Shown here: positions 20,260-60,687 of the stretch, piece by piece | How the letters are laid out: every line of letters begins with the position of its first letter | Numbering within the stretch: position 1 is the stretch's first letter | Origin: an uncultured Candidatus Peribacteria bacterium | Lineage (GTDB): Bacteria; Patescibacteriota; Gracilibacteria; Peribacterales; Peribacteraceae | Assembly: GCA_964449445.1 (NCBI GenBank) | Contig: CAYUZT010000006.1 | Span: forward strand, 12,223 to 76,222 | DNA: 64,000 nucleotides | Reading direction: 5' to 3' | Position numbers and translations under genes: made by a program | The notes under the pieces: model-generated | What the model was told of the DNA's origin: nothing | What the model saw: only the letters and a program-made list of their open reading frames with translations | Database searches by the model: none

Positions 20260-20268
20260 ATTTTTGCT

Positions 20269-25293: not shown

Positions 25294-25370
25294 CCCTCTC
25301 CCACCGCAGTGGGAGAGGGTGCCCCGTAGGGGCGGGTGAGGGCTATGAGTGAGGGCTATGAGTGAGGGTT
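25294..25370 (+). repeat. GGGAGAGGG/GGGTGAGGG hairpin element (type 1), extended copy with tandem GGGCTATGAGTGA x2
   Basis: ccctctccc-accgcagt-gggagaggg then gccccgtaggggc and gggtgaggg repeats; read directly. Confidence 0.8.
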
Positions 25371-25394
25371 TTCAGAAAGAGCTATACTGTAGAT

Positions 25395-34772: not shown

Positions 34773-35528
34773 CTACTTTGCAACGAACGCTGTTGCTCCC
34801 AGCCACGCAAGATCAAAGACGGCCTTCATCGTGCGTGCGAATGCGGGACTTTCGACAATGAGACCGAGCAGCTCATCCTGATTGAGCGAAACGATGCCGA
34901 CGGAGTTATTGAAGACAAGCACTTCGTTCTCAAACAGGAACTGATCGCGGTTCACGAGCAAGATCTCCAACAGGTTGTGATCGAATTTCTTGGGAAGAAA
35001 TTGGTCCATCACATGAACGCTCTCCACTGTGGTTGGCGACAGGTAGCGGGTCTTGATCTTCCGCTTTATCTTTTCATGCGTATAGCGCTCGAAGAATTCC
35101 GGAAAGAAGGTGGTCACGCTCTTGAGGTTTGTGTAGCCGAGAATCTCACTCTTGGCAGAGAGGGATTCCGTAAACACGCGCTCCACTCCGTCCTGTCCTT
35201 CGTAAAAACGGATCTTCGGCCGGAACCCAAGCGAGCTCGCAAGGGACTTGAGTGATGGCAAGAGCCCCTTCGCGATATTTAATTTCTCCTCGGCAATCTC
35301 GAGAATTTGTTCAGGAGGCTCAGGTGCGAAACACTTCACACCATTGCGGTTGTACTGACTGAGGAGTCTTTTCGCGAGAAGATTCTCGACAGTGTGATAG
35401 CAACTGACGCGATTCACTCCCGCTTTGCGCGCAATGTTGCTGACGGGACCACCGTTGATTTCCAGAACGGCGAGATACACTTTCGCTTCTTCGTCTGTCA
35501 GCCCGAGCTTGAGGAGTTCTGTGATCAT
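34773..35528 (-). CDS. TrmB-family transcriptional regulator (3)
   Basis: LGLTDEEAKVYLAVLEINGGPVSNIARKAGVNRVSCYHTVENLLAKRLL. Confidence 0.8.
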   Translation of the reverse strand: MITELLKLGLTDEEAKVYLAVLEINGGPVSNIARKAGVNRVSCYHTVENLLAKRLLSQYNRNGVKCFAPEPPEQILEIAEEKLNIAKGLLPSLKSLASSLGFRPKIRFYEGQDGVERVFTESLSAKSEILGYTNLKSVTTFFPEFFERYTHEKIKRKIKTRYLSPTTVESVHVMDQFLPKKFDHNLLEILLVNRDQFLFENEVLVFNNSVGIVSLNQDELLGLIVESPAFARTMKAVFDLAWLGATAFVAK

Positions 35529-35802: not shown

Positions 35803-37482
35803 ATGTCTTCATCATGTCTACAGTGCAAAAAATCGTTTGAGATCATGAAAGAAGATCTCGAATTCCTCGAAAAGCTCTCACCGGAGATCGGCGGAAAGAG
35901 GTTCGCACTGCCTCCGCCCACACTCTGTCCTGATTGCAGACTCCAACGCCGCCTGGCGCACGTGAATCAACTGAACCTCTACGAGCGGACGTGCGACCTC
36001 TCGGGTGCGACGGTAATCAGCAATCACCATCCGAAGAGTCCATACAAAGTGTACCGGCAGGAAGATTGGCATAGCGACAAGTGGGAGGGGGCAACGTATG
36101 GACGGCCGTTTGATTTCTCACGACCTTTCTTTGAGCAATACCAGGAACTGAGCCTTGCAGTCCCACGACCGAACCTCTTCACGGGATACGAGTTTGATGA
36201 GAACTCGCAATACACGAACCACGCGGGAAAGAATAAGAACTGCTACCTGATCTTCGATAGTGATGAAAATCGGGATTGTTACTACAGCTACAGCATCAAT
36301 CACTGCGTGAACTGCTCCGATTGCTTCCGTACACGCCGCAGTGAGCTCTGCTACGAGTGCGTAGACTGCGTGCAATGCTACGGGAGCGGATTTTTGCAGG
36401 ACTGCGAGAACTGTTCAGATTCTCTCTTTTTGAAAAACTGCATCGGCTGCCGTAGCTGCCTGATGTGCAGCAATCTGAAAAACAAGGAGTACCACGTGGA
36501 GAACAAACCCGTTTCCAAGGAAGAGTACGAGAAGATGCGCGACATGCTCTCATCCCATTCTGTCTTGCAGAACGCGGCAAAGAGATTTGCCAAGCTCAAG
36601 CTGGAACATCCGCAGAAATACATGCATGGCACGCAGAATGAGAATGTGACGGGCGATTACCTGGTCAACTGCAAGAATGCCTTCCGGTGCTTCGATACGG
36701 AGAACCTGTGGGATGGCCGCTACGTGTACCAGGGTTTCATGCCGCTCAAGGATTGCATGGACGTGCACGAATGCGGCGAAGGAGAACTGCTCTACGAGTG
36801 TTCTGTCGCCGGCTATCAAATACAGCGTCTCTGGTTTTCGGCTTACACGCTGGCTGCATCCAGTGACCAGCTCTACTGTCAGCATTGTCCGCATAGTAAA
36901 CACTGCTTTGGCTGCATCGGCATTCGGCGCAAGGAGTACTGCCTCCTCAACACGCAGTACTCTCAGGAAGAGTACGATCAATTGGTACCGAAGATAATCA
37001 AACACATGCAAAAGACGGGTGAATGGGGACAATTCTTTCCAATCAGTCTCTCCACGTTCGGATATAACCAATCGCTTGCACAGGATTACTATCCACTGGA
37101 GAAGAAAGACGTTATGAAACACAACTGGGCATGGTTCGATGAGCCGGATTCAGCTGATCGGTATCTGGGACCGCAAGTGAATGTTCCGGAGAGGATCCAA
37201 GACGTCACCGACGATATCACCAAGCAGATACTGACCTGTGAAACATCGGGAAAGCAGTTCAAAATCATCCCGCAGGAACTCGCACTCTACCGGCAACTCA
37301 GAGTGCCGCTCCCCCGCAACCGCTTCTTTGAGCGCCACCGCAGCCGCCTTGCACAACGGAACCCCCGAACTCTTCACGCACGATCATGCGATAACTGCAA
37401 AACTCCAATCGAAACGACGTACGCCACAAATCGGCCGGAAAAAATCTACTGCGAATCGTGCTATCAGCAATCTTTGATATGA
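35803..37482 (+). CDS. Cys-rich double-zinc-ribbon repeat protein, paralog 4 (first gene of 7-gene operon)
   Basis: ORF 35695 trimmed to ATG 35803 (MSSSCLQCKKSFEI); ends CESCYQQSLI; TGA overlaps next ATG (ATGA). Confidence 0.9.
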   Translation: MSSSCLQCKKSFEIMKEDLEFLEKLSPEIGGKRFALPPPTLCPDCRLQRRLAHVNQLNLYERTCDLSGATVISNHHPKSPYKVYRQEDWHSDKWEGATYGRPFDFSRPFFEQYQELSLAVPRPNLFTGYEFDENSQYTNHAGKNKNCYLIFDSDENRDCYYSYSINHCVNCSDCFRTRRSELCYECVDCVQCYGSGFLQDCENCSDSLFLKNCIGCRSCLMCSNLKNKEYHVENKPVSKEEYEKMRDMLSSHSVLQNAAKRFAKLKLEHPQKYMHGTQNENVTGDYLVNCKNAFRCFDTENLWDGRYVYQGFMPLKDCMDVHECGEGELLYECSVAGYQIQRLWFSAYTLAASSDQLYCQHCPHSKHCFGCIGIRRKEYCLLNTQYSQEEYDQLVPKIIKHMQKTGEWGQFFPISLSTFGYNQSLAQDYYPLEKKDVMKHNWAWFDEPDSADRYLGPQVNVPERIQDVTDDITKQILTCETSGKQFKIIPQELALYRQLRVPLPRNRFFERHRSRLAQRNPRTLHARSCDNCKTPIETTYATNRPEKIYCESCYQQSLI

Positions 37483-39149
37483 AATCACCCGCTTGTGCAC
37501 AGTGCCGACAATCATTGGAGATCACGAAGAATGATCTGAAATTCTATGATCTGGTTTCTCCAGTCATTGCGGGAAAGAAGTACCTCGTCCCTCCCCCCAC
37601 ACTCTGTCCCGACTGCCGCAGGCAACGGCGGCTGAGTTTTCGAAACGAACGAACGCTCTATCACCGAAAATGCGACTTCTCTGGAAAGCAGCTCATCTCA
37701 AATTTTGCGGTGGATGCCGAAAATCCCGCCTACGCGTATGAAGAATGGTGGAGTGACAAATGGGATGCAAAAAGTTTTGGCCGCGCATTCGACTGGAGCA
37801 AAACATTCTTCGACCAGTACGCCGAACTGCAGCGTGTCGTCCCGCAACTAGCACTGCTGGTCTGGAATTCCGAAAACAGCGACTACTGCAACTGTGTGGG
37901 AAACGTCAAAGACTGCTACCTCATTTTTGGCTCTGTGTACTCACAAGATTGCTACTACGGATCGCCGTACTACTCTAAAAACTGCGTCGATACGCTTCTC
38001 GTCCGAGAATGCGAGCGATGCTACGAATGCGTCGATTGCCGCAAGCTCTACGGGTGCATTGGCTGCCGGGACTGTCACAACGGATGCGATCTGCTCTTTT
38101 GCTACGACTGTCAGAGCTGTACCGACTGCATCGGCTGTGCTGGTTTGCGGCAAAAAAAGCACTGCATCCTCAATACGCAATATACAAAAGAGGAATATGA
38201 AAAATTACGCGCAAAATTCGACCTCTCGGATCCGAAAACTCATGCGTCTCTGCGGGAAAAACTTCGCAAAATTTCCCTGGAAATCCCCCATCGGTTCATG
38301 CAGTGCGCGCAGACGGAGAACGTGAGCGGCAATTTCGTGTATCAGTCGAAGAACGTCCACGACTCGTATTATGCCGATCGATGCGAAGATTGCGGCTACT
38401 GCGCACAGGTGGTAGATCTGAAAGACTGTCATGATAACAATTACACCGAAGAGAACGAGCGTTGCTATGAGTACATCGGTAACTACCAGAACAATCACCT
38501 TCTCTTCTCCCGTTTCTCCAATCATGTGTCAGAGAGCATGTACTGCGATAGCTGTTTCACGAGCAAGAATCTTTTTGGATGCATCGGGCTGCGGAATTCT
38601 GAGTACTGCATCCTTAATAAACAGTACACGAAGGACGAATATGAAGACCTTGTTCCGAAAATCATCGCCTACATGCAAAAAACGGGAGAATGGGGAGAAT
38701 TCTGGCCCACGCGGATCAGTCCCTTCGGCTATAACGAGACAGTCGCGCAGGAATACTTCCCGCTCACGCAAAAAGACACGAAGAAAAACGGGTGGAAATG
38801 GCATACGGAAGAAGAATCGAGCGAAAAGTACCTGGGACCGACAGTGGAAATCCCCCGGAAGATTGAAGATGTGACGGAAGAGATCTGTCAGAAAATTCTG
38901 CTGTGTGACGTGACCGAACGACCGTACAAAATCATCCCGCAGGAATTGAAGTTCTATAAGGAGATGGGCATTCCGATTCCCCGCAGCTGTCCCGATGAAC
39001 GTCATAGAGAACGCATGGCACTCCGTAATCCTCGCACGCTGTGGGCGCGAGCATGTTCCAAGTGCGGCAAGGAGATCCGGACAACGTATGCGCCCGATCG
39101 ACCGGAAATCGTCTACTGCGAAGAGTGTTATCTCGCTACTGTGTACTAA
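37479..39149 (+). CDS. Cys-rich double-zinc-ribbon repeat protein, paralog 5
   Basis: ORF 37458 trimmed to ATG 37479 (MKSPACAQCRQSLEI); 41 Cys by hand count; ends CEECYLATVY. Confidence 0.9.
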   Translation: MKSPACAQCRQSLEITKNDLKFYDLVSPVIAGKKYLVPPPTLCPDCRRQRRLSFRNERTLYHRKCDFSGKQLISNFAVDAENPAYAYEEWWSDKWDAKSFGRAFDWSKTFFDQYAELQRVVPQLALLVWNSENSDYCNCVGNVKDCYLIFGSVYSQDCYYGSPYYSKNCVDTLLVRECERCYECVDCRKLYGCIGCRDCHNGCDLLFCYDCQSCTDCIGCAGLRQKKHCILNTQYTKEEYEKLRAKFDLSDPKTHASLREKLRKISLEIPHRFMQCAQTENVSGNFVYQSKNVHDSYYADRCEDCGYCAQVVDLKDCHDNNYTEENERCYEYIGNYQNNHLLFSRFSNHVSESMYCDSCFTSKNLFGCIGLRNSEYCILNKQYTKDEYEDLVPKIIAYMQKTGEWGEFWPTRISPFGYNETVAQEYFPLTQKDTKKNGWKWHTEEESSEKYLGPTVEIPRKIEDVTEEICQKILLCDVTERPYKIIPQELKFYKEMGIPIPRSCPDERHRERMALRNPRTLWARACSKCGKEIRTTYAPDRPEIVYCEECYLATVY

Positions 39150-39151
39150 CC

Positions 39152-40828
39152 ATGCCAAATACTTGCACACAATGTCGGCAATCCTTCGAGATTACGAGTG
39201 AAGATCTCGCATTTTATGAGAAAGCGTCACCGATCATCAATGGAAAGACATACTTGATTCCCTCCCCGACCCTCTGTCCCGACTGCCGCGTGCAGCGGCG
39301 CATGGGGTGGCGCAATGACCGCACGTTCTACCATCGTAAATGTGATTTATCGGGAAAGCAGATCATCAGCCTCTACCCGCCGGTGACGCCGTTCCCTGTG
39401 TACCACCAGAGCGAGTGGTACAGCGACAAATGGGACCCGATGACCTACGGCCGTTCCTTCGATTTCTCACGTCCATTCTTCGATCAGTGGAAAGAATTGA
39501 TGAACACGGTGCCGCGCCTGGGCATTGATATCGTGAATTGCGAGAACAGTGACTACTGCAACTACTGTGGGGATGATAAAAACTGCTATTTGGATATCGC
39601 TGGCGAAGCCAACGAAGACTGCTACTTCGATCTCTTCACCAAATACAGCAAGAACTGCGTCGACTGTACCTTCGCGTACAACTCCACCCTCTGCTACGAA
39701 TGTATTCAGGTCTACAACTGTTACAACGTCCGGTATTCACAGTACATGGAGGATTGTTCTGATTGCGCGCTGTGCTTTGACTGCAAAGGGTCGCGTAATT
39801 GTCTCCTCTGCATCAATCAGCGCAACAAGGAGTACTGCATTCTGAATCAACAATATTCAAAAGAGGAGTTCCAGAAAAAACTCTCCGAGTTGAAGCTGAA
39901 TTCTTGGAAAGGATTACAAGCGGTCTTCGCGCTCTGGAAGAAGATGCGTATCGAGAAAGGCATCTACCGCGATATGTACAACCTGAGCTGCGAGAATGTG
40001 ATCGGCAATGACGTGAAAAATTCCAAGAGCTGCCGCCACTGCTTCAATGTGACTAACAGCGAAGACGGCGCGTACCTCTACGACGTACTCGATGCGAAAG
40101 ATTGCCAGGATATGAACTATTCCCTCTACAAGCCCGAGCTCGCCTACGACACGATCTCCACTCTGCAGATGCGCTCCTCGGCGTTCAATATGGCCTCACA
40201 TTACTGCTCGAGCGTCTTCTACTGCGATCTCACGAACAATTCCAAGAACCTCTTTGGCTGCATCGGCCTTAATCACAAGGAGTACTGCATCCTGAACAAG
40301 CAGTACACAAAGAAAGAGTACGAGGAGCTTCTGCCGAAGATCATTACACATATGGAGACGACGAAAGAATGGGGAAATTTTTTCCCACTGACGATCTCCC
40401 CCTTCGGATACAACGAAACCGTTGCTCAGGAGTATATGCCGCTTAAGAAGACCGATGTGCAGTCACGCACGTGGACATGGCGAGACGAATCTGCGGCCGA
40501 TCAAGAATATTTGGGACCATCGGTTGAAATCCCCGACCGCATAGAGGACGTGAACGACGATATCACCGGAAAAATCCTGAAATGCGCCGGTTCAGGCAAA
40601 CCGTTTAAGATTATTCCCCAAGAATTGAAATTCTATAAGCAGCAAGGAATTCCTATCCCGAGAAAATCGCCCCAAGAGCGTCACAAAGAACGTAATCACC
40701 TCCGTTCTCCACGAAAACTCTGGGAACGAACGTGTACGAAATGCTCGAAGAGCACCACGAGTTCCTATGCACCCGATCGGCCTGAGAAAATCTATTGTGA
40801 AGAGTGCTATTTGAAAGCCGTCTATTGA
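39152..40828 (+). CDS. Cys-rich double-zinc-ribbon repeat protein, paralog 6
   Basis: ORF 39041 trimmed to ATG 39152 (MPNTCTQCRQSFEI), 2 nt after paralog-5 stop. Confidence 0.9.
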   Translation: MPNTCTQCRQSFEITSEDLAFYEKASPIINGKTYLIPSPTLCPDCRVQRRMGWRNDRTFYHRKCDLSGKQIISLYPPVTPFPVYHQSEWYSDKWDPMTYGRSFDFSRPFFDQWKELMNTVPRLGIDIVNCENSDYCNYCGDDKNCYLDIAGEANEDCYFDLFTKYSKNCVDCTFAYNSTLCYECIQVYNCYNVRYSQYMEDCSDCALCFDCKGSRNCLLCINQRNKEYCILNQQYSKEEFQKKLSELKLNSWKGLQAVFALWKKMRIEKGIYRDMYNLSCENVIGNDVKNSKSCRHCFNVTNSEDGAYLYDVLDAKDCQDMNYSLYKPELAYDTISTLQMRSSAFNMASHYCSSVFYCDLTNNSKNLFGCIGLNHKEYCILNKQYTKKEYEELLPKIITHMETTKEWGNFFPLTISPFGYNETVAQEYMPLKKTDVQSRTWTWRDESAADQEYLGPSVEIPDRIEDVNDDITGKILKCAGSGKPFKIIPQELKFYKQQGIPIPRKSPQERHKERNHLRSPRKLWERTCTKCSKSTTSSYAPDRPEKIYCEECYLKAVY

Positions 40829-42495
40829 TGGAAAAAACATGTCTCCAATGCACGGCTGTGTTTGAGATCACGAAAGAGGATCTCGTGTTCTATGAGAAAG
40901 TTTCACCGATCATTGCCGGGAAGACATATCCGATTCCACCGCCCACGCTCTGCCCCGACTGCCGCCTGCAGCGCCGACTATGCTGGCGGAGCGAAACGAA
41001 ACTCTATCATCGCAAATACGACAAGACCGGGAAGCAGATTATCTCGATGTACTCGCAGGACAAACCGCACAAGGTGTACGCACAGGAAGAATGGTGGGGC
41101 GATGGATGGGATCCTTTCGATTATGGAAAGTCGTTTGATTCCACCCGCCCGTTCTTTGAACAATTTGGCGAACTGATTCTCCAGGTTCCACGACCATCTC
41201 TTATCTGCGAACAATCTGAAAATTGCAATTACTGTCACAACACGACATTTTCAAAAAACTCTTACCTTTGTTTTGCTGCTCTGGAAATCGAAAATTGTTA
41301 CTACGATTACATCCTCGTCAAATGCAGGGATGCCATCGACTGCCTGAGCGTGTCGGGTTCCGAACTTTGCTACCAGTGTATCAACAGCAGACAATGCTAC
41401 CGCTGCTCAGATGTTCAGAATGCCATCAACTGCAGAGATTGCACGTTCTGCTTCGACTGTACGGGATGCAAAAATTGCATCGGCTGCGTCGGTCTGCGTC
41501 AAAAAGAGTTCCATGTATTTAATGCACCCGTATCAAAAGATGAATTTGAGAAAATGCGCCGGTCCCTTGACTCCCATACGGCATATGAGGCTTTGCGAAA
41601 GAAGTTCGGACAGCTGAAAATTGGACTGCCGCACCGTGCCAGCTTCCAGGTGAGCTGCGAAGATTGCACTGGTGATCATATTTTCCATTCCAGGCGCTGT
41701 CTTTCCTGTTTTGAAATCGAGGACTGCGAAGACATCGCCTATTCACATAACACAAATAAATTCAAAGATTCCATGGACGTCTTCGGTGCGATGATGGGCG
41801 GAGAATTGCAATATGACAACATTGCGGCAGGTGGAGGAGTCCATGTGATGTTTTCGTACCTCAGCTGGCATAATTCCGACTCGTACTATCTCAATTATTG
41901 TCACAATTCGCGCGACCTCTTCGGATGCATCGGATTGCGGCAGAAGCAATACTGCATCCTGAATACGCAATATACGAAGGAAGAATACGAGCAGCTCCTC
42001 CCAAAAATCATTCAACACATGCAAAAAACAGGAGAATGGGGGCAATTCCTTCCAGTCGCTCTCTCCCCGATTGGTTACAACGAGAGCAATGCATATAGCT
42101 TTTATCCTCTGACCCGTGATGAGTGCCTCGCGCGCGGATGGAAGTGGAATGACGAAGATGATTCTCGCGAAAAATATTTAGGACCGAGTGAGCGTATTCC
42201 CGATTCCATCGCCGACGTTACCGATGATATCTGCCAGAAAATTCTCATCTGCGAAGCAACCGGCAAGCCATACAAGATCATTCCGCAAGAACTCGCTTTC
42301 TATAGAACGATGGCCATCCCGATCCCCAGGAAGTGTCCGGATCAGCGTCACAAAGAAAGAATGACACGCAGGAATCCCCGCAAACTCTGGAAGAGAACAT
42401 GTGCAAAGTGCTCAAAGGAGATCCAGACGACGTATGCACCCAATCGTCCGGAGAAAATCTACTGTGAAGAATGCTATCTGAAGGAGGTATACTAA
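40828..42495 (+). CDS. Cys-rich double-zinc-ribbon repeat protein, paralog 7
   Basis: ORF 40804 trimmed to ATG 40828 (MEKTCLQCTAVFEI); TGATG 1-nt overlap with paralog 6. Confidence 0.9.
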   Translation: MEKTCLQCTAVFEITKEDLVFYEKVSPIIAGKTYPIPPPTLCPDCRLQRRLCWRSETKLYHRKYDKTGKQIISMYSQDKPHKVYAQEEWWGDGWDPFDYGKSFDSTRPFFEQFGELILQVPRPSLICEQSENCNYCHNTTFSKNSYLCFAALEIENCYYDYILVKCRDAIDCLSVSGSELCYQCINSRQCYRCSDVQNAINCRDCTFCFDCTGCKNCIGCVGLRQKEFHVFNAPVSKDEFEKMRRSLDSHTAYEALRKKFGQLKIGLPHRASFQVSCEDCTGDHIFHSRRCLSCFEIEDCEDIAYSHNTNKFKDSMDVFGAMMGGELQYDNIAAGGGVHVMFSYLSWHNSDSYYLNYCHNSRDLFGCIGLRQKQYCILNTQYTKEEYEQLLPKIIQHMQKTGEWGQFLPVALSPIGYNESNAYSFYPLTRDECLARGWKWNDEDDSREKYLGPSERIPDSIADVTDDICQKILICEATGKPYKIIPQELAFYRTMAIPIPRKCPDQRHKERMTRRNPRKLWKRTCAKCSKEIQTTYAPNRPEKIYCEECYLKEVY

Positions 42496-42499
42496 CCTC

Positions 42500-44164
42500 A
42501 TGCCGAATTCCTGCACAGAATGCGCAGCAACATGGAACGTGAGTTCTCGCGATCAGGCGTTCTATGATCAGATGAACGTGCCGCCGCCGAAATCCTGCCC
42601 CGATTGCCGCTTGATGCGCAGGCTCGTGGAAAGGAACGCGCGAACGCTCTACAAACGGAAATGTGATCTGACCGGCAAAGATTTTATTTCTCCCTACCAT
42701 CCCGATCACTCGTTTCCCGTCTATACTCCCGATGCTTGGTGGAGTGACGGATGGGATGAAATGAAGTACGGACACGATATCGACTTCTCTCGTCCCTTTT
42801 TCGAGCAATTCTCACAGTTGCTCAACGCCGTTCCCCATCAGGGACAGTTTGTGGTCCCGGGCACCATGCAGAACAGTGACTACGTGAACTGCGCGGGGTA
42901 CTTGAAGGACTGCTATTTGATCGCCGAAACCGATTACAACGAGCACTGCTACTACGGTAACCGGATTTTTCACAATAAATCGATGGTCGACTGCAGCAAT
43001 GTCTACGAGAACGAGCTCTGCTATGAATCCATCGACTGCATCAAATGCTACGGACTGCGCTTCTGTCAGGAATGCCAAAATTGCAGCGAAAGTTTTTTCC
43101 TGGATAACTGCATCGGCTGCCGCGACTGCATCGGCTGCATCAATCTGCGGCAAAAGCAGTACTGCATCCTGAACAAGCAGCTGACGAAGGAGGAATATGA
43201 GCGACAGAAAGCGGGGCTCAAGCTCAACACCTACGATGGAGTCCAGAAGATGCGGAAAGATGCCGACACGTTCTTTGCGACCCAGCCGCACAAGTCCGTC
43301 CAGAACGAACACAACGAGCGTTCGAGCGGCAACCACCTGTACGACTCCAAGGACGCCGAGGACTGCTACGACTGTAAAGATCTGGAAGACTGTGTACGCT
43401 GCGCCCGCACATTCTCGGTGAAATCTTCAATGGATTACACTTCGTGGGGAGATAAATCTGAATTGATGTACCAGTGTGCCTCCAGCGGCGATAACGCCTA
43501 CAACTTAAAGTTCTGCACCACCTGCACCACCAATAACAGCAATTTGGAATACTGCGCGCATTGTTCGGGCTGCTCCGATTGTTTTGGCTGCGTCGGCACA
43601 CGGAAGAAGAAGTACTGCATCTTCAACAAGCAGTATTCCAAGGAAGAGTACGCGACACTGCGAGACCAATTGATCGCGCATATGAAAAAATCAGGTGAAT
43701 GGGGAGAATTTTTCCCGAAGTCCCTTTGTCCCTTCGCCTACAACGAGACGATTGCCATGGAATACTTCCCATTGACGAAAGAAGAAGCGATCAAACGCGG
43801 ATACCACTGGCGGGACGAGCAGATCGAAAAACCCGATGTTCCTAAAGTGATCCGTGCCGAGCAGTTACCGCAGTCTATCGGTGAGATTCCCGATGATGTA
43901 CTCAACTGGGCTGTCACATGCCTTGTCTCAAAGAGACCGTTTCGGATCATCAAACAAGAACTCGCATTTTATCGGCAGCTGGATCTGCCATTGCCGCGTA
44001 AACATCCCGATGAGCGGCACAAAGAGCGCATTGCCCGGCGTTCCGGCGTTAAACTGTTTCCGCGCGCGTGTGCGAAATGCAGGAAGCAGATGCAAACAAC
44101 CTATGCTCCTGAGAGGTCGGATATTGTCTATTGTGAAGATTGCTACCTCAAAGAGGTGTATTAG
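42500..44164 (+). CDS. Cys-rich double-zinc-ribbon repeat protein, paralog 8
   Basis: MPNSCTECAATWNV; 4 nt after paralog-7 stop; preceded by AAGGAGGTATACTAA. Confidence 0.9.
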   Translation: MPNSCTECAATWNVSSRDQAFYDQMNVPPPKSCPDCRLMRRLVERNARTLYKRKCDLTGKDFISPYHPDHSFPVYTPDAWWSDGWDEMKYGHDIDFSRPFFEQFSQLLNAVPHQGQFVVPGTMQNSDYVNCAGYLKDCYLIAETDYNEHCYYGNRIFHNKSMVDCSNVYENELCYESIDCIKCYGLRFCQECQNCSESFFLDNCIGCRDCIGCINLRQKQYCILNKQLTKEEYERQKAGLKLNTYDGVQKMRKDADTFFATQPHKSVQNEHNERSSGNHLYDSKDAEDCYDCKDLEDCVRCARTFSVKSSMDYTSWGDKSELMYQCASSGDNAYNLKFCTTCTTNNSNLEYCAHCSGCSDCFGCVGTRKKKYCIFNKQYSKEEYATLRDQLIAHMKKSGEWGEFFPKSLCPFAYNETIAMEYFPLTKEEAIKRGYHWRDEQIEKPDVPKVIRAEQLPQSIGEIPDDVLNWAVTCLVSKRPFRIIKQELAFYRQLDLPLPRKHPDERHKERIARRSGVKLFPRACAKCRKQMQTTYAPERSDIVYCEDCYLKEVY

Positions 44165-44217
44165 GAGGCTTGCCGCGGCGAAGTAATTTGCGCGAAGCCG
44201 GGTATACTGACTCTCCT

Positions 44218-45873
44218 ATGGAGCGGACATGCAGACTCACGGGAAAGACGTTCACCGCTTTGCCCCAAGAAATCGCATTGTGCGAGAGCTTGAACGTTCC
44301 CCTCTCCGATATCTGCCCTGAGGAACGTCTGCGCATTTGCATGGCGGAACGCAATGAGTGGAAGCGCTACCATCGAACGTGCGATAAGACCGGCACTCCT
44401 ATAATCAGCGGCTACCCGCCGGGAAGTCCGTACACGATTTATCGAAACGACATCTGGTGGGGCGATAGTTGGGAAGCTCTTGAGTACGGCCGGGAGTTCA
44501 ATTTCTTTAAACCCTTCTTCGAGCAGTTCCTCGCACTCCAGAACGTGGTCCCGCGCGAAGGCACCTCGGTCTTCCAGTGCGAAAACTGCGATTACAACAG
44601 CCATGTCCGATTTTCGCGCAACTGCTACCTCAATTCACTCGCAGCCAACTGCGAAGATATCTACTACAGTTACTGGACGGTGAGAGGGAAGAACTGCATC
44701 GACTGCGCGTATACCAACGACTGCACGCTCTGCTACGAAGTGATCGACGTGAATAATTCCTATGGTTGCATCGCTCTGCAGGATTCCAGTAACTGCAGCG
44801 ACTGTTTTTTCTCGTATCAACTCACCGGGTGCCAAAATTGTCTGTTCTGCACGAACCTGGCCAACAAGACGTACCACATTCGCAACAAGCCCTGCGGGAA
44901 AGAAGAGTTCGCACAAGCGAAGAAAGCGCTTTTGAACGGGTCACACACCCAGTGGCAGAAAGCCTACGACGAGTGGCGGATCATCCGCAGGGCATGCGTG
45001 CACCGGCCTGTGCACATGCTTCACTGCGAGAACGTGTCGGGCGATCACATCTACAATTCCCGAAACTGCACGGAATGTTTTGAGGGAACGAACTGCGAAG
45101 ACTGCGCATTCACAGTGTCGCTCGGCGACTCCAAGAATGTCTGCAGTGGCTACTCCACCGGCTGGCCGGGCAGCGAGCTCGTCTACTTTTCCAGTATGAC
45201 GCGCGGCGGAACGGATCTCGCCTACTGCACGTACAGCTGGTTCTGCAGCAATATGCGGTACTGCGACAGCTGCCAAAGTTCCCACAATTGCTTTGGCTGC
45301 GTTGGTCTGCGTCAAAAGCAGTACTGCATTCTCAATAAGCAATACTCGAAGGAAGAATACGAATCGCTGAAAGCAAAGATCATCGAGCACATGAAGAGCT
45401 CTGGCGAATGGGGCCATTTCTTCCCGTTGAACTCCTTCCCTCACGCGTACAACGAAACAGCAGCACAAGATCGCATGCCGCTCTCCAAAAAAGATGCGGT
45501 CGCCATGAGTTTCCGCTGGAGTGAGTATGAAGAAGATCCACCCGCAATGAAAAAAATCGTTTCACCAGCACAATTGCCGGACGGGCTCGCGCAGATCTCT
45601 GATGAGATCCTCGACTGGGCGATCCGCTGTCAAAAGAGCAGTCGACCGTTCCGCATCATCAAACAGGAACTCGATTTCTACCATCGTTTTGGACTCCCAC
45701 TGCCGCGCATGCACCCAACGGAACGCCACTTGTATCGCATGTCTCAACGCAACCCCATCACCCTGTGGAAGCGGGCATGCATGAAGTGCGGAAAGGAGAT
45801 TCGGACGACCTACTCGCCCGAAAGCACTGAGAAAATGTATTGCGAGGAGTGCTATTTAAAAGAGGTATACTGA
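44218..45873 (+). CDS. Cys-rich double-zinc-ribbon repeat protein, paralog 9 (N-terminal ribbon degenerate)
   Basis: ORF 44140 trimmed to ATG 44218 (MERTCRLTGKTF...ICPEERLRI); rest of protein family-typical; ends CEECYLKEVY. Confidence 0.85.
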   Translation: MERTCRLTGKTFTALPQEIALCESLNVPLSDICPEERLRICMAERNEWKRYHRTCDKTGTPIISGYPPGSPYTIYRNDIWWGDSWEALEYGREFNFFKPFFEQFLALQNVVPREGTSVFQCENCDYNSHVRFSRNCYLNSLAANCEDIYYSYWTVRGKNCIDCAYTNDCTLCYEVIDVNNSYGCIALQDSSNCSDCFFSYQLTGCQNCLFCTNLANKTYHIRNKPCGKEEFAQAKKALLNGSHTQWQKAYDEWRIIRRACVHRPVHMLHCENVSGDHIYNSRNCTECFEGTNCEDCAFTVSLGDSKNVCSGYSTGWPGSELVYFSSMTRGGTDLAYCTYSWFCSNMRYCDSCQSSHNCFGCVGLRQKQYCILNKQYSKEEYESLKAKIIEHMKSSGEWGHFFPLNSFPHAYNETAAQDRMPLSKKDAVAMSFRWSEYEEDPPAMKKIVSPAQLPDGLAQISDEILDWAIRCQKSSRPFRIIKQELDFYHRFGLPLPRMHPTERHLYRMSQRNPITLWKRACMKCGKEIRTTYSPESTEKMYCEECYLKEVY

Positions 45874-45877
45874 GTTC

Positions 45878-47566
45878 ATGCAGCACGCATGCAGCAACTG
45901 CAAAGCAGCATTCGAGATCCCTCAGGACGATCTCGACTTTTACGATCGTGTGTCACCGGTGATTGCCGCGAAGAAGTATGCAATTCCACCGCCAACCCAT
46001 TGTCCCGACTGTCGGCAGCAACGCCGGCTCGCGCAGTGCAATGAGTTCAATCTCTACCCGGGTGAATGCGGTCTCTGTAAAAAGCGAACACTTACGCAAT
46101 TTCCGAAAGACAGTGGAATTCCCTACTACTGCCGAGAATGCTGGCACAGTGATACGTGGGATGCACTCTCGTATGGACGAGATATCGACTTCTCACGCCC
46201 ATTCTTTGAACAACTCTCCGAGTTAAAACGGGCGGTGCCGTCACTCGCGCTCGATGTACAAGGAGAACTGACAAATTCCGAGTACATCCATTTTGCAGGC
46301 AGCTCGAAGAATTGCTATCTGATCATGCACGCAGACTTCTGCGAAGATTGCATGTACGGATACGGCTTCAAACATAATCGTTCCTGCATCGACGGCTTTT
46401 ACAATCTCCAATGCGAACGGTGCTACGACTGCATCGATATTCTCAAATGCTATAACCTCATCCACTGCCAAGACTGTACCAACTGCTCTGATGGAGCATT
46501 CTTACGTGACTGCATTGGCTGCAGAAATTGCTTCCTCTGCGTGGGACAACGAAATAAGGAATTCTGCTTTGGCAATGAGCAAATGACGCGTGAACAGTAT
46601 GAGAAGAAAATCAAAGAGCACGGCCTGCGTTCTCATCGTCAGTACCAAGAATGTGCTACTCAACGAAGGAATCTGGAAGCTACTCACCCGTTCAAATTCT
46701 TCCAGGGAAACAACATCGAAAGCAGCACCGGGGATCATTTGAATAACTGTAAGAATGTTTACCAGAGCTTCGATTGTGAAAACGTGGAGCAGGGAAAATT
46801 CCTCTACCAGATCGTCACCGGTGCCAAAGATGTGCAAGATATCTATCAGTATGGTCTCAACTTGCAACAATCATACGAGTGCGCGATTGTCGGAGAAAAC
46901 AGTTATCATTTGCTCTTTACCTACGGTGGTCATACGGCCTCAGACCTGGTGTATTGCTGGTACGCAGAGCGGAGCAAGTCGTGCTTCGGATGCGTAAACC
47001 TCTCACAGAAAAAACATTGCATCTTCAATAAGCAATACACGCCGGAAGAATATGATGCATTGGTCCCGAAGATCATCGAACATATGAAAAAGACAGGTGA
47101 ATGGGGTCAATTCCTTCCCATGAATATTTCACCATTCGGTTATAACAGGACAACTGCACAGCAATATTACCCTCTCGAAAAATCCGACGCTTTAGAGAAA
47201 AACGCGTGTTGGGATGATATTGATTTACCAGTGCCGGAAGCAACGAAGGTGATTCCCGCGGAGCGCTTACCCGATGACATCAAAGACATTCCCGATGATG
47301 TGCTCAACTGGGCGATCACATGTGAGGTCACTGGCCGACCGTTCAAAATCCAGCCTCAGGAATTGCGCTTTCTTCGCGAGTTCGGACTTCCACTACCCCG
47401 CCGCGCTTGGCATCAGCGTCACCTTGATCGTTTTCAAGCTCGAAATCCAAGAAAATTCTGGAACAGGACGTGTGGGAAGTGCCAGAAAGCCATTCAGACA
47501 ACCTACGCACCAAACAGGCCCGAGATTGTGTATTGTGAAAATTGCTACCTTTCCGAAGTATATTAG
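45878..47566 (+). CDS. Cys-rich double-zinc-ribbon repeat protein, paralog 10
   Basis: N-terminal module keeps four Cys pairs (CSNC, CPDC, CGLC, CREC); ends CENCYLSEVY. Confidence 0.9.
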   Translation: MQHACSNCKAAFEIPQDDLDFYDRVSPVIAAKKYAIPPPTHCPDCRQQRRLAQCNEFNLYPGECGLCKKRTLTQFPKDSGIPYYCRECWHSDTWDALSYGRDIDFSRPFFEQLSELKRAVPSLALDVQGELTNSEYIHFAGSSKNCYLIMHADFCEDCMYGYGFKHNRSCIDGFYNLQCERCYDCIDILKCYNLIHCQDCTNCSDGAFLRDCIGCRNCFLCVGQRNKEFCFGNEQMTREQYEKKIKEHGLRSHRQYQECATQRRNLEATHPFKFFQGNNIESSTGDHLNNCKNVYQSFDCENVEQGKFLYQIVTGAKDVQDIYQYGLNLQQSYECAIVGENSYHLLFTYGGHTASDLVYCWYAERSKSCFGCVNLSQKKHCIFNKQYTPEEYDALVPKIIEHMKKTGEWGQFLPMNISPFGYNRTTAQQYYPLEKSDALEKNACWDDIDLPVPEATKVIPAERLPDDIKDIPDDVLNWAITCEVTGRPFKIQPQELRFLREFGLPLPRRAWHQRHLDRFQARNPRKFWNRTCGKCQKAIQTTYAPNRPEIVYCENCYLSEVY

Positions 47567-47572
47567 CAATTT

Positions 47573-47606
47573 TCACCCTGAGCGAGCGAAGCGAGTCGAA
47601 GGGTGA
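47573..47606. repeat. Hairpin element tcaccct-N20-agggtga
   Basis: 7-bp stem read directly, 6 nt after paralog-10 stop. Confidence 0.75.
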
Positions 47607-47607
47607 G

Positions 47608-47634
47608 GAGTGCTATCTGAAAGAGGTGTATTGA
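47608..47634 (+). pseudogene. Orphan 3'-terminal fragment of a paralog (encodes ECYLKEVY-stop)
   Basis: gag tgc tat ctg aaa gag gtg tat tga, 1 nt after the hairpin; no upstream body. Confidence 0.6.
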
Positions 47635-48180: not shown

Positions 48181-48222
48181 AAATTTCGCAATTCGACGAC
48201 ACCTGAGCGGTATACTGACCTG

Positions 48223-49902: not shown

Positions 49903-50168
49903 TGCAATTTTTCGAGGAATTTGCTGATTTTTGCCAACAGAGATGGCAAGCTGCATTCATGAGACTTTGTTATAGAAATAGGCGCATACCACGACATGAG
50001 AGAGCCCCTTCTCAATGGGCAGGTCGATGGGATGCTCTTAAGACTATTGAGATTGATGTCACATCTCCGGTTCCCATCACTGATATCAATGCCACCTCAA
50101 CAAGCTTCAATTGCCTTGCAGATGAACAAGACCTCTATTCTATAGAAGACAAGTGATAGAATTTCCGC

Positions 50169-51904: not shown

Positions 51905-51934
51905 GAAAAGTGTTATTTGGAAGTGGTGTATTGA
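51905..51934 (+). pseudogene. Orphan 3'-terminal fragment of a paralog (encodes EKCYLEVVY-stop)
   Basis: gaa aag tgt tat ttg gaa gtg gtg tat tga, 1 nt after the hairpin. Confidence 0.55.
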
Positions 51935-51940: not shown

Positions 51941-51978
51941 AACCCTCACCCTAACCCTCTCCCTTAAAAGGGAGAGGG
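51941..51978 (-). repeat. Type-1 hairpin element, inverted copy of 27098-27135
   Basis: aaccctcaccctaaccctctcccttaaaagggagaggg; its reverse complement matches 27098-27135 except within the 6-nt loop. Confidence 0.85.
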
Positions 51979-52102: not shown

Positions 52103-54346
52103 ATGGCTGGTCTGCGATTTATGCATATCGTTATTCCTCAGGGAGTCGAGGGAAGCAAGAAACTCGAATCCCGGTTTCAGGAATTGCTCGTGAACTTGTG
52201 GAATACGTTCACCGGCTCGCGCATATCCTTGGAGTTCTATGGGTACGCACAGTACACGTACTTTTACATCGTCCTCGACGAGAAACTCTATGAGACTGTG
52301 GAAGGTCTCATTTACTCAACATTCCCGGATGCCGAGGTAAAGGAAACGAAAGACTACACGTTGAACTTCGATCCCAAGAAGCAGGCGCTCGCGGGTGCGG
52401 ATATGACGCTGCATCACGCGGACATTTACCCGATCAAAACCTACGACATGTTCGAGGAAGATAGCGCCGCGCGTCTGCTCTCAGTCATCAGCAAGATCGG
52501 CCGCGACGATCAAGTATGGGTGCAGATTCTCTCGGAACCCAAGGATGATACCGGCGCGTTCCACTACCTGCGCAACTGGCGCAGGCGCCGCGCGGATGCG
52601 GGACATTTCTTTTCGCTGCGGGATCGTCTGCGCGAAGGAGGGCGTAAGGGCGTCAGTCACCGGCGCCACGAAAAGGCTGCGGAGAAAGCAGGAATCAAAC
52701 CATACCGCGTCAGCATCCGCTGCGCCTACATCGCGCCGAATGCCGCAACCGCAAGCCAGAGATTGGAAGCCGTGATGTCGAGCTTCTCGCAGTTCAACGA
52801 GAAGGACATCAACGAGATGCACGGTCATCAGACCAACAAAACAGAGAAGTTCATCGAACAGTACCGAGCGCGGATCCACGCGGTGCCGTTCATCCTGAGC
52901 GCCAAGGAAGTCGCGACGCTCTACCACTTCCCGAACGCCGATTTCGTGCCGCACATCGTCCACGTGCTCGCGCGCAAATCCGATCCGCCGCAAGATCTGC
53001 CCAAGGCAGGGGAAAGCGACGTGAGCGCGTTTGGCGTGACCAACTACCACAACAACTTTGTGCCCTTCGGGATCCGCCGAAGCGATCGACGCAGACACCT
53101 CTACACCATCGGAAAATCGGGTGCCGGAAAAAGCAAACTTCTGGAACTCCTCATACACGCAGATCTGATGAATGGTGAAGGCATCGCAGTGCTCGATCCC
53201 CACGGTGATTTGATCGACGCGATCATGCGCTACATTCCAGAGAACCGTGTGAATGACGTGGTGCTCCTGGATCCGGGAGATACGGAGTTCCCCATCGCCT
53301 TCAACCCGCTCGAAAAGGTCGACGAAGCCTTCAAGATGCAGGTGACGATTGGCTTCCTGCAGATTTTCAAGAAGCTCTTCGGCAATAACTGGAGTGATCG
53401 GCTCGAGCACGTGCTTCGCTACACGACGCTCGCTCTGCTCGATAGTCCGAATACTACCGTCCTGAGCATCCTCAAAATGCTGACGGACAAGAACTACCGC
53501 CAGAAGATCGTCTCGCGCATCCAGGATTCCGTCGTCAAGAACTTCTGGGTCGCGGAATTCGCTGCCTGGAGCGAAAAATTCGATGCTGACGCGATCACTC
53601 CCCTGCTCAACAAAGTTGGTCAGTTCGTGGCAACCAACATGATCCGTAACATCATCGGCCAGCCGAAGACCAAGTTCGACATCCGCGAGATCATGGACAA
53701 GAAGAAGATCCTGCTGATGAAAGTGTCGAAGGGACTTTTGGGTGAGGAGAACTCGTCGCTCATCGGTTCCATGTTCATCACCAAGCTCTACCAGGCCGCG
53801 ATGAGCCGCGCCGATACTGCAGAAGACAAGCGGACGGACTTTTACTTCTACGTCGATGAGTTCCAGAACTTCGCAACCGATACATTCGCAGAAATTCTGA
53901 GTGAGGCCCGCAAATACAAGTTGAATATGACGCTGGCACACCAGTACATGGGTCAATTGAACGATGTCGTTCGCAAAACCGTCTTTGGTAACGTCGGTTC
54001 CATCATCAACTTCCGCGTGGGTGCGGAAGACGCGGTGATTTTGGCTGAGGAATACACACCGGTCTTTAAGGAACGCGACATCATTAACCTGGGCGTCCGG
54101 GAGTTCTACATTAAAATGTCTGTCAGCGGAGAACTCCGCGAAGCGTTTTCGGGCCGGACGCTGGATGTGCCGAAAATTGTGAGAGATTGGACACCGGAGA
54201 TCATCGCCTCCTCGCGGCAGAAGTACTGCCTCCCGAGGGTCGACGTGGAAACGATGATGAAAAAGTGGGACGAAGCCGCCTCGGCACCGCCGAGCAAGGA
54301 GGAGCAGGCGGCAGTGGAGGAGCAATTTGAGGAGCCACTGATTTAA
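52103..54346 (+). CDS. Soluble P-loop ATPase, TraD/VirD4-like type IV coupling protein family
   Basis: Walker A TIGKSGAGKSKLLE, Walker B FYFYVDEFQNF, LAHQYMGQL; ~300-aa N-terminal domain without TM helices. Confidence 0.6.
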   Translation: MAGLRFMHIVIPQGVEGSKKLESRFQELLVNLWNTFTGSRISLEFYGYAQYTYFYIVLDEKLYETVEGLIYSTFPDAEVKETKDYTLNFDPKKQALAGADMTLHHADIYPIKTYDMFEEDSAARLLSVISKIGRDDQVWVQILSEPKDDTGAFHYLRNWRRRRADAGHFFSLRDRLREGGRKGVSHRRHEKAAEKAGIKPYRVSIRCAYIAPNAATASQRLEAVMSSFSQFNEKDINEMHGHQTNKTEKFIEQYRARIHAVPFILSAKEVATLYHFPNADFVPHIVHVLARKSDPPQDLPKAGESDVSAFGVTNYHNNFVPFGIRRSDRRRHLYTIGKSGAGKSKLLELLIHADLMNGEGIAVLDPHGDLIDAIMRYIPENRVNDVVLLDPGDTEFPIAFNPLEKVDEAFKMQVTIGFLQIFKKLFGNNWSDRLEHVLRYTTLALLDSPNTTVLSILKMLTDKNYRQKIVSRIQDSVVKNFWVAEFAAWSEKFDADAITPLLNKVGQFVATNMIRNIIGQPKTKFDIREIMDKKKILLMKVSKGLLGEENSSLIGSMFITKLYQAAMSRADTAEDKRTDFYFYVDEFQNFATDTFAEILSEARKYKLNMTLAHQYMGQLNDVVRKTVFGNVGSIINFRVGAEDAVILAEEYTPVFKERDIINLGVREFYIKMSVSGELREAFSGRTLDVPKIVRDWTPEIIASSRQKYCLPRVDVETMMKKWDEAASAPPSKEEQAAVEEQFEEPLI

Positions 54347-57548: not shown

Positions 57549-59342
57549 ATGTCTACAGAAAAAAGTGAATCTACGATTGGCAGGGATGCTGTCAATGAGC
57601 TGCGGGAGCTCGCTGAGGTGCGGCGAAAGAGCCTAGCATCGATCAAAGGACGGCTCTCGTCGTCGAAAATTCTCGGAGATGCGGACATAAAAGTCTATGA
57701 AGAGGCAATGTCCGACGAACGGCTCGCAAGTGTGGGGAAAATACGGCATCAGGACAAAGTCCAATATATTCGTGAAGATATCGAAAAATCGATGGTACAG
57801 CGACTCCTTTCCGATGCGGAGAAACTGGAACGGCAATTCCGTGAAGGCATCAAGATGGCAAGCGGCAAGTGGATCAGTGAAGCAAAAGCCAATTGGTGGA
57901 TCGGGAAACTTGAAAATAAGTCGATACCGTTCCACAAGAAGCACCTGTTCATCATGAAGCAAATAAATAAAACAGAAGGCGAGGAATTCACGGACGAAAA
58001 GGCCTTCACTGCGTTCCTGAACAATTGGCGTTTCGTCGCGGAAAAAGCGGAGAAGCTTCGGGGGCATCCTCAAATGAAATACCTGACCAGCGCCGATGTC
58101 CCCGAACTCACGACATTCCAGAACGTCGGCCAATTCCTCGCACTCTCGTACAAGAAACGCAAAGCCTTGGTCAAAACCGTCGACGCGGCACTTACCGCAA
58201 AGGAGATGCAGATCCCTCAGCTCTATACGAAAGCCAAGACCATGCTCAACTGGGCGGTGCAACGGCAGGCGTTAAGCCCAAGTAAAGTCGGCAGCTGGCT
58301 CGAGCGCATTTTTAAGAGCGAGGCGAAGGCCGAAGAGATCGATCAGTTCCTGAACAACAAGGGATCAATGCCGCTGCAGAGTTTGATCGACAACTGGGCG
58401 AAGGCGAGCAAGCATTACCAGGTGATTGAAGCGAAGCGGAAGGCGCTCGGTTCCCCGCGTGGTTTCCATTTCGTGAAAATGGATGTCTTCCTGAACTGGG
58501 GATACGACCAACGCACATCTTATTTGAATGAAGCCGATAACCGCTTCACGGACATTCGGGATGAATCGTACGTGTTTCTCAAAATCCGCCACGAATTGGG
58601 AGCAAAAGACTGGGACGCGGCCGACGAGCTGATCGATAGCGTGAAGAGTGAGCTGAACGACGGCAGCCTCCTCATGAGTGAGGAAAATCGCAACAAACTT
58701 TCCGTCATGGAAAAATTCTTGCGTGAACATCGGACCGATACAAAGGAGAAAAAATCCCAAGAGAAACCATCACCGGATGATGTGATAGCGGAGATGCATG
58801 AGCTGCTCGATCAGCTGCCAGATCAGCTGAAACGCACGTATAAGAAGGCGCTCGGCAAAGGCTATCAGGCCTTCTGGGCGCTCACGACGCTCATGTACAA
58901 CCGTGTGTGGTGCCACCAGCACAATTTCCTCGATGTCGGCAGAGAGAAAACTCTGGAAAAAGACGCGAAAGAGAAAACGATCGAACGCGTCGACCAGGGG
59001 CATAACAAAAATATCGTCGAAGCGAATTACGTGAAAGGCAGTACGAACACCCGTCCGGCAATCCGTAATCAGGCAGGCGTCAGAAAGGCGCAGATTCTCT
59101 TCACCGAGGAGCGGAGCGACGAAACGATCGTGGAGGAAATTAATGCGCAGAAGAATGACCGGAATTTCTGGTACTGGACAAGTATGATCCCCCAGGGAGT
59201 GGAGTATGCGGCGCATCTCAACATCGTCCAAACACTCCACCCGCGCATGAAGAAGCTGGCACGGCAGATGGAACAGATGGGCGTACGACTGGAAGGCACT
59301 TCTCCCGTGAAGCCGGATCATATCGTGATGGCAAAGGGATAA
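57549..59342 (+). CDS. Hypothetical protein (597 aa, charged/helical)
   Basis: Long uninterrupted ORF, TAGACT 11 nt upstream; no family recognised. Confidence 0.55.
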   Translation: MSTEKSESTIGRDAVNELRELAEVRRKSLASIKGRLSSSKILGDADIKVYEEAMSDERLASVGKIRHQDKVQYIREDIEKSMVQRLLSDAEKLERQFREGIKMASGKWISEAKANWWIGKLENKSIPFHKKHLFIMKQINKTEGEEFTDEKAFTAFLNNWRFVAEKAEKLRGHPQMKYLTSADVPELTTFQNVGQFLALSYKKRKALVKTVDAALTAKEMQIPQLYTKAKTMLNWAVQRQALSPSKVGSWLERIFKSEAKAEEIDQFLNNKGSMPLQSLIDNWAKASKHYQVIEAKRKALGSPRGFHFVKMDVFLNWGYDQRTSYLNEADNRFTDIRDESYVFLKIRHELGAKDWDAADELIDSVKSELNDGSLLMSEENRNKLSVMEKFLREHRTDTKEKKSQEKPSPDDVIAEMHELLDQLPDQLKRTYKKALGKGYQAFWALTTLMYNRVWCHQHNFLDVGREKTLEKDAKEKTIERVDQGHNKNIVEANYVKGSTNTRPAIRNQAGVRKAQILFTEERSDETIVEEINAQKNDRNFWYWTSMIPQGVEYAAHLNIVQTLHPRMKKLARQMEQMGVRLEGTSPVKPDHIVMAKG

Positions 59343-59351
59343 TCTTCCTCT

Positions 59352-59390
59352 CATTGGCATCTTTGGCATCCTTGGCTTCGTTGGCTTCCT
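59352..59390 (+). repeat. Four tandem 9-bp words YNTTGGCWT
   Basis: cattggcat ctttggcat ccttggctt cgttggctt; read directly. Confidence 0.8.
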
Positions 59391-59408
59391 TCATTATGAT
59401 CCTCCCCT

Positions 59409-60665: not shown

Positions 60666-60687
60666 AGAATTGAATCGTAGCGAAAGA

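Follow-up and report, generated by a model that had tools for sequence, protein, structure and literature searches.

Last codons of tandem paralogs as probable promoter boxes for leaderless transcription of the next gene in a Peribacteria array

Can the last codons of one gene carry the expression signal of the gene that follows it? The question is raised by an array of twelve same-strand paralogs (P1 to P12, positions 25395-51836) in a 64,000-nucleotide (nt) stretch of DNA, hereafter the window, from an uncultured Candidatus Peribacteria bacterium (GenBank assembly GCA_964449445.1, contig CAYUZT010000006.1, positions 12,223 to 76,222). According to the list of open reading frames (ORFs) and their alignment, each paralog encodes a cysteine-rich protein of about 555 amino acids (aa). 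An initial annotation of the window proposed that the terminal codons for Lys-Glu-Val-Tyr-stop (K-E-V-Y-stop) double as a signal for the next paralog, either a Shine-Dalgarno (SD) site or a -10 hexamer, and that the same string survives upstream of head copies, which lack a preceding gene body. From comparison of sequences, we consider it probable (roughly 0.7) that the hexamer TATACT in these codons serves as the -10 box for a leaderless transcript beginning at the ATG of the next gene, that the likeness to an SD site is incidental, and that the strings before head copies are relics of gene tails.

The two tight junctions of the array can be read directly, and both are as first quoted. P7 ends ctg AAG GAG GTA TAC TAA cctc ATG (42478-42502), where the ATG at 42500 is the start of P8. 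Its last five codons, AAG GAG GTA TAC TAA (42481..42495; the paralogs, their tails, boxes and junctions all lie on the forward strand), spell AAGGAGGT and TATACT, and the hexamer (42488..42493), the candidate -10 box of P8, is made up of TA from the end of the Val codon, the whole Tyr codon and the T that opens the stop codon, leaving 6 nt to the start. P9 ends aaa GAG GTA TAC TGA gttc ATG; its last five codons, AAA GAG GTA TAC TGA, occupy 45859..45873, with TATACT at 45866-45871, 6 nt before the ATG of P10 at 45878.

The string is likewise present without a preceding gene body upstream of P1, P3, P9 and P11, with TATACT 6-9 nt before each start; the coordinates first given for the beginnings of the P1 and P11 strings were off by an immaterial 1-3 nt. 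Upstream of P1 lies what looks like a decayed tail, cagAAAGAGcTATACTGt (25373..25390), which reads K-E-L-Y-C in the tail frame and holds TATACT at 25383-25388, 6 nt from the ATG at 25395; just 5' of this box, at 25337-25362, stand two tandem copies of a 13-nt unit, GGCTATGAGTGAG. P3 is preceded by TTAAAGGTATACTGA (32144..32158), which shares bases with a symporter gene's stop codon and reads L-K-(E lost)-V-Y-stop, with TATACT at 32151-32156, 8 nt from the ATG at 32165. The string GGTATACTGA occurs before P9 at 44201..44210, after the tail of P8 itself and a hairpin at 44167-44199, and before P11 at 48209..48218; the respective hexamers (44203-44208 and 48211-48216) lie 9 nt from the ATG at 44218 and 6 nt from the GTG at 48223. 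P12 has TAGAAT (50157..50162), generically -10-like and not tail-like, 6 nt from its ATG at 50169. Six of the 12 paralogs thus have TATACT 6-9 nt 5' of their start. The hexamer occurs 18 times in the window (5.9 expected; none of 100 shuffles reaches 18), and its extended form GGTATACTRA five times (0.02 expected), with every copy at a paralog.

One line of evidence for our interpretation comes from synonymous codon choice. Val-Tyr-stop can be spelled in 4 x 2 x 3 ways, and TATACT arises only from GTA TAC Tnn. We tabulated family tails ending in [V/I]-Y in the window and in 80 related loci from other genomes (such loci are L-numbered below where they must be told apart) against the distance from the stop codon to the next ORF start. 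TATACT was found in 11 of 13 tails with a start 4-7 nt past the stop, in 0 of 23 with a gap of 3 nt or less, in 0 of 3 with a gap of 8-14 nt, and in 3 of 90 without a close start. Counted as the codon pair GTA-TAC, the contrast is 11/13 at gaps of 4-7 nt versus 3/116 otherwise, and both tight junctions of the window are spelled this way.

A motif-blind scan of one genome per species (185,579 species) gave the same picture. It searched for C-E-x-C-Y-x3-V-Y-stop-N4-ATG with the Val and Tyr codons left free, and used 10 nt as a second fixed gap. At gap 4, where the ATG opened a real ORF, the tail contained TATACT in 18 of 33 cases and TATATT in 9 of 33; where the ATG was fortuitous, the figures were 1/26 and 4/26. 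At gap 10 with the ATG of a real ORF they fell to 0/10 and 1/10. The effect is also seen in members of Nomurabacteria, Staskawiczbacteria and Saccharibacteria. Judged by these contrasts, the motif is under selection at its position. The C-terminus ...C-Y-L-K-E-V-Y-stop is itself selected at the protein level: K-E-V-Y is conserved as a peptide across the family, including lineages whose nucleotides are quite different, and the peptide therefore came first.

Boxes of the same general form stand before unrelated genes. TAnnnT lies 5-10 nt before the first start of 15 of the 43 non-paralog long ORFs in the window, compared with 3.9% of all ATG/GTG (p = 4e-11), most commonly at a spacing of 6 nt, and non-family ORFs of the related loci (1.27 Mb) show a sharp peak at that spacing (53 versus 8.4 expected). 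The middle bases of these non-family boxes vary (TATCAT, TACAAT, TAGACT, TACGCT, TATGAT and others), a pattern that marks a sigma-70 -10 element as opposed to a base-pairing site or a fixed operator, and some are preceded, at exactly 17 nt, by TTGACA or TTGGCT (12066, 20269, 59409, 60665). A -10 box 6 nt before an ATG would make transcription begin at the start codon itself, the arrangement found in leaderless mRNAs. These boxes before unrelated genes, together with the tying of a rare codon pair to the 4-7 nt gap, favor the -10 alternative of the initial annotation.

Two promoter-like regions, 12020-12066 and 20225-20269, belong to unrelated genes and are nearly identical, with a perfect TTGACA, 17 nt, AATGAT, 6-9 nt and ATG. 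Upstream of two genes for signal-peptide-like proteins (MKHPLSLALL... and MKRLLATLSF...), at 59340-59408 and 60666-60735(-), there are about four tandem 9-nt units nTTGGCWTC, which stop 8 nt 5' of the -10 box and place one unit at -35 distance.

Other explanations of the strings have to be set against this evidence. Codon usage and chance alone deserve hardly any credence: TATATT tails are common in AT-rich relatives without a downstream gene, but GTA is the rarest Val codon in the paralog bodies (6.3%), the GTA-TAC pair expected at 4.2% is found in 11 of the 13 tight junctions, and both the shuffles and the gap-dependent contrast contradict this account. The SD alternative, in which the purine-rich K-E-V codons (AAGGAGGT) of a polycistronic mRNA would bind the ribosome ahead of the next paralog, draws on the perfect AAGGAGGT in the P7 tail and on the tight packing of P4-P8, which may be co-transcribed. 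Against it, SD-like strings are depleted before the genes of the window (3/43 versus a background of 15.7%), and Ca. Peribacter riflensis is SD-scarce, with an SD in 7% of its genes (PMC10783764). The published 3' tail of Peribacteria 16S rRNA is GAACACTTCCTTA (CACTTCCTTA), with CUUCC in place of CCUCC (PMC10783764). The 16S gene lies outside the window, and GGAGG could still pair with the published tail through one G-U pair; strings of the GGAAG type, the match to the altered anti-SD, are depleted in the window as well, where GGAGG or GGAAG precedes 0 of 42 genes. Within the tails GGAGG is not linked to the gene downstream (2/33 with a real downstream gene versus 1/26 without, p = 1; for GAGG or GGAG, 13/33 versus 10/26), many TATACT junctions have no SD-like string (aaagctGTATACT, gaaaccGTATACT), and the tail of P3 spells AAGGAGGTT and is followed only by a hairpin. 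In P7, moreover, AAGGAGGT ends 11 nt before the ATG, longer than usual. Since AAG-GAG-GTn coding spells AAGGAGGT, the SD-like look of the tail seems to follow from the codons alone, and the SD alternative, which is not supported, is in our view improbable. It is likewise improbable that the palindromic GTATAC within G-GTATAC-T is the operator of a dimeric regulator, such as the TrmB-like helix-turn-helix (HTH) proteins encoded by three genes inside the array, or an RNA-level re-initiation signal. A G directly precedes TATACT in about 80% of family boxes versus about 21% of others, as an operator might demand; this extra G is, however, supplied by the Val codon, and unrelated genes with TAnnnT, a variable middle and the same 6-8 nt spacing show a -10 pattern. 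As for an RNA signal, TATACT finds no complementary stretch in the published 16S tail, and the stand-alone copies would work without an upstream translated ORF.

A further account accepts the boxes as real promoters and holds that TATACT arose independently before the head copies, its likeness to V-Y-stop being convergence. P12 with its TAGAAT would fit, as would the many family heads elsewhere that have TATAAT or TACAAT. RelE/ParE-like tails also speak for it: in three related loci from Peribacteria genomes (L074, L101, L109) an unrelated RelE/ParE-like, toxin-like gene ending ...THxEVY-stop lies directly 5' of a family gene and its own tail supplies an GAGGTATACTGA box, and therefore any V-Y-stop tail next to a gene can give rise to the spelling. 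(A further Peribacteria locus, L015, has a YoeB-like gene and then a separate EEVY-stop string 5' of a family gene.) Yet family genes have TATACT before them more often than any other box (18/53 in the related loci, 6/7 in the window), whereas it is seldom the box of a non-family gene (1/56). A classifier assigned 22 TATACT boxes to head copies, four of them in truth tails that it had missed; of the 22, 14 have GG (as from GAG-GTA) before them, 14 a stop-like dinucleotide after them and 12 both, while GG precedes only 4 of 70 other boxes. The string GGTATACTGA before P3, P9 and P11 reads as an in-frame V-Y-stop with the preceding G-G. Real tails, too, stand where the window has none. The P3 ortholog of L032 (72% identity) begins 6 nt downstream of a real tail, ttgAAGGAGGTATACTAA, at the place where P3 of the window is preceded by ttaAAGG, a gap of three positions and TATACTGA, overlapping the symporter stop codon; the P12 ortholog of L120 (65% identity) lies behind a real TATACT tail, acgGTATACTAAgttcATG. 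P8 orthologs retain TATAYT though their upstream neighbor varies (best match P7, P2 or P4). The gaagccgggTATACTga of P9 recurs in L092 at the same position 3' of the P8 ortholog, and the P11 ortholog of L101 has ctgaggTACACTtga at the same place. In L039, finally, a complete tail without a gene body (EECYLKAVY-stop, spelled GTATACTGA) stands 6 nt before a P3-like gene, where it would act as the box. Independent origin of the head-copy boxes is on these grounds unlikely.

Several observations weigh against our interpretation, in whole or in part. An ungapped profile test found the sequence upstream of P1 to be significantly tail-like beyond the hexamer (p = 0.0012), but the match is partly shared with the flank of a repeated hairpin element ('gagggtttt' further upstream) and this evidence was downgraded. 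The same test found no significant likeness beyond the hexamer upstream of P3, P9 and P11, as convergence would have it; P3 fits a tail only if a 3-nt deletion is allowed, and similarity to tails past about 10-15 nt is weak for all three in the window. The earlier proposal that the duplication unit carried the 3' tail of the preceding copy stands in outline, through the family-specific TATACT, its G-G and stop-like flanks, the L032 ortholog and the stand-alone tails, and is weak beyond those 10-15 nt. In the species-wide scan, Fisher's test for TATACT gave p = 2e-5 when real and fortuitous ATGs at gap 4 were compared and p = 0.002 between gaps of 4 and 10 nt, values that are optimistic given that junctions of related genomes are not phylogenetically independent; in the sequences compared, the direction of the codon effect and its dependence on the gap are clear despite this kinship. 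Exceptions occur at gaps of 4-5 nt (TCTATT in L092, TCTACT in L126, TTTACT in L003). No -35 element is recognizable before the family boxes, and a standard sigma-70 two-hexamer scan of the array, uninformative in itself, returned 10 sites versus 18.4 in shuffles, none of them at the boxes. A search for the window sequence in sequencing runs returned four groundwater DNA metagenomes and zero RNA runs. Lastly, promoter function cannot be the sole reason for the persistence of tails, as the intact stand-alone tails described below make plain.

With these reservations, the -10 box interpretation can be drawn out as follows. Most genes of this genome would be transcribed from a TAnnnT box 6-8 nt before the start, the mRNA beginning at the ATG or GTG, and SD pairing would hardly be used. 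The GTA TAC TRA spelling of Val-Tyr-stop happens to contain TATACT, and selection among synonymous codons would fix it where the next gene starts 4-7 nt past the stop, and a gene's final codons would then double as the -10 box for its downstream neighbor, as from P7 to P8 and from P9 to P10. When the array is rearranged, the breaks and joins would fall inside the conserved tails or next to them, a gene traveling with the promoter-bearing end of a tail; where the upstream copy was lost or displaced, the promoter-proximal G-GTA-TAC-TGA would stay behind as non-coding DNA, as before P1, P3, P9 and P11. We infer from this arrangement that in P1, P3, P8, P9, P10, P11 and P12 the adjacent box drives transcription from the start codon onward and that P5-P7 depend on coupling to the upstream gene; the recombination route through conserved tails is likewise a conjecture drawn from the sequences.

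The junctions within the array are of several kinds. P7 (40828..42495, 555 aa, ending ...YCEECYLKEVY-stop) agrees with a public 555-aa gene call; P8 (42500..44164, 554 aa) starts 4 nt past its stop, and P10 (45878..47566) encodes 562 aa. The start codons assigned for P7-P10 match public gene calls. The stop of P4 and the start of P5 overlap as ATGA (37479..37482), with no box and with coupling as the presumed mode of expression; P5 and P6 are separated by 2 nt (TAA, cc, ATG; 39147..39154) and P6 and P7 overlap as TGATG (40826..40830), both without TATACT. P2 and P4 start without any box. Stable hairpins lie 3' of P1, P2, P3, P10 and P12 (z -2.6 to -4.7), while that of P8 is weak (z -0.4); their placing fits separate transcription units with putative internal promoters at P8 and P10.

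Tails also occur where no gene follows, two of them in the window and absent from the list of the initial annotation. A complete stand-alone tail without a gene body, GAGGAGTGCTATCTGAAAGAGGTGTATTGA (EECYLKEVY-stop; 47605..47634), lies 38 nt past the P10 stop and has the highest score of all tails against a profile of the last nine codons plus stop; another, GAAAAGTGTTATTTGGAAGTGGTGTATTGA (EKCYLEVVY-stop; 51905..51934), lies 68 nt past the P12 stop and is followed by a hairpin at 51955-51978. Neither contains TATACT or precedes a gene, and promoter function therefore does not explain their retention; the claim that the tail is kept because it supplies an expression signal is not the whole story. 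The 1.27 Mb of related loci contain 33 stand-alone tails against 312 real ones; most of the 33 lie 31-98 nt past a preceding tail, in mixed frames. Their state of preservation equals that of real tails, and decayed intermediates are very few. Read-through or frameshifting into stand-alone tails was considered and rejected, the frames relative to the first tail being mixed and L039 having only 3 in-frame codons before its tail. The module at P10, which consists of a tail, GCAATTTTCACC hairpins and a second tail, recurs in L031, L039, L020, L054 and L010, and one metagenome-assembled genome (JBBAAJ01) has three copies of a 45-nt block of it that do not differ at all while the upstream coding sequence diverges, which points to gene conversion or to a small mobile element that would bring its own replacement tail.

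These modules admit a bolder and more doubtful idea, in which the last ten or so codons would be protein C-terminus, -10 promoter and recombination joint at once, units of tail end plus gene body would move between tails, and stand-alone tails would be functional att-like sites and not debris. If true, the movement of units between tails would explain the shuffled order of paralogs between genomes with seamless junctions, and hairpin elements bearing their own replacement tail, inserted at the same place, would explain the tail-hairpin-tail modules. No recombinase of an integron-like system was recognizable among the ORFs of the window, a subset of which was scanned with profiles.

Two kinds of repeat accompany the tails. 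An 11-bp perfect inverted repeat, GTGAAAATTGC ... GCAATTTTCAC (47535-47576), encloses the last seven codons of P10 and part of its stop, placing the tail in the loop of a hairpin; it belongs to the module that recurs in other genomes. Five hairpins resembling repetitive extragenic palindromic (REP) elements (CCCTCTCCC-loop-GGGAGAGGG, often followed by GGGTGAGGG) lie before P1 and after P1, P2, P3 and P12, at 25294-25319, 27098-27121, 29729-29754, 33827-33852 and 51955-51978; the P12 copy is inverted, and the folds are stable (z -2.6 to -4.1).

The encoded family is a cysteine-rich protein of about 555 aa specific to the candidate phyla radiation (CPR). The twelve paralogs share only 36-46% pairwise identity, all start M-x-x-x-C-x-x-C, and all but P4 (...QQSLI), hence 11 of the 12, have the C-terminus ...Y-C-E-x-C-Y-L-x-x-[V/I/M]-Y-stop. 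Homologs were found in at least 587 stretches of CPR genomes, mainly of Peribacteria and Peregrinibacteria but also of Gracilibacteria, Nomurabacteria, Saccharibacteria and others; orthologs of individual paralogs in other Peribacteria reach 57-84% identity, which shows the paralogs to be old and the window to belong to a Peribacteraceae genome. Family members on contigs binned as Micrarchaeota, Gammaproteobacteria and Bacteroidales (L010, DUGF01000091.1; L098; L102) are probably binning errors, given the otherwise CPR-only distribution. The last 35 or so residues of the paralogs align to the zinc-finger models TIGR04272 and PF23477 (CxxC-x17-CxxC, treble-clef) and resemble such fingers in this, although at 16-21 bits they fall below the curated cut-offs of 27 and 36; for the remaining 520 or so residues, searches of Pfam and NCBIfam returned no described family and a sequence search of the PDB no related solved structure. 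The three TrmB-like HTH regulator genes, paralogous to each other and with weak NCBIfam matches, lie on the opposite strand interleaved with P1-P4, at 27149-27916(-), 29772-30530(-) and 34773-35528(-). Directly past the array, at 52103-54346, a gene encodes a 747-aa protein matching TraG/VirD4/TrwB-type coupling ATPase domains.

Each part of this arrangement has known relatives. In Actinobacteria and Deinococcus, promoters of leaderless mRNAs carry a TANNNT -10 box about 6-7 nt before the start codon, and predictors of start sites recognize a 'bacterial leaderless' class; such promoters were reportedly treated by Cortes et al. in 2013 (cited in PMC12641261). The boxes described here share with them the fixed T1, A2 and T6 with a variable middle, the 6-8 nt to ATG or GTG, a weak or absent -35 element and the scarcity of SD sites; they differ in lineage, in lying inside the conserved last codons of an upstream paralog, and in that the transcription starts are deduced from sequence. 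In the literature searched, no account of leaderless promoters in Peregrinibacteria or Patescibacteria was found. Promoters situated inside the 3' end of an upstream gene, where coding and regulatory information overlap, are likewise known, and here too coding sequence would double as the next promoter and constrain synonymous sites. Unlike in other cases, a single peptide end (V-Y-stop) recurs in this role at many junctions, across many genomes and several CPR classes, its spelling switches with gap length, and the element would persist as non-coding DNA after loss of the upstream gene. Integrating elements, for their part, include a copy of the target gene's 3' end, as at the att sites of tRNA genes, and integron cassettes have their boundaries inside the recombination site. 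By analogy only, the tail-hairpin-tail modules resemble these in the direct 3'-end repeats that flank an insert, the intact end of the upstream gene and the variable order of units between genomes; they differ in that no integrase or recombinase was seen among the subset of window ORFs scanned and in that the 'insert' is often 30-100 nt, and homologous recombination or gene conversion between conserved tails may suffice. What is unusual here is the lineage, the reuse of one conserved peptide end as a box, its gap-dependent on/off state and its survival as non-coding DNA.

For Peribacteria, an uncultured group of the CPR, our interpretation would provide a testable picture of gene expression in which promoters abut start codons, no ribosome-binding site is used and each gene of an array may be switched from the last codons of the previous one. 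It also offers a natural example of synonymous-codon constraint, a rare spelling that recurs in many genomes only where a gene starts 4-7 nt downstream. In annotation, boxes borne by tails should be allowed for when start codons are called in CPR genomes and when "intergenic" fragments that look like tails are interpreted, and the stand-alone tails hint at how such arrays may grow, shrink and reshuffle.

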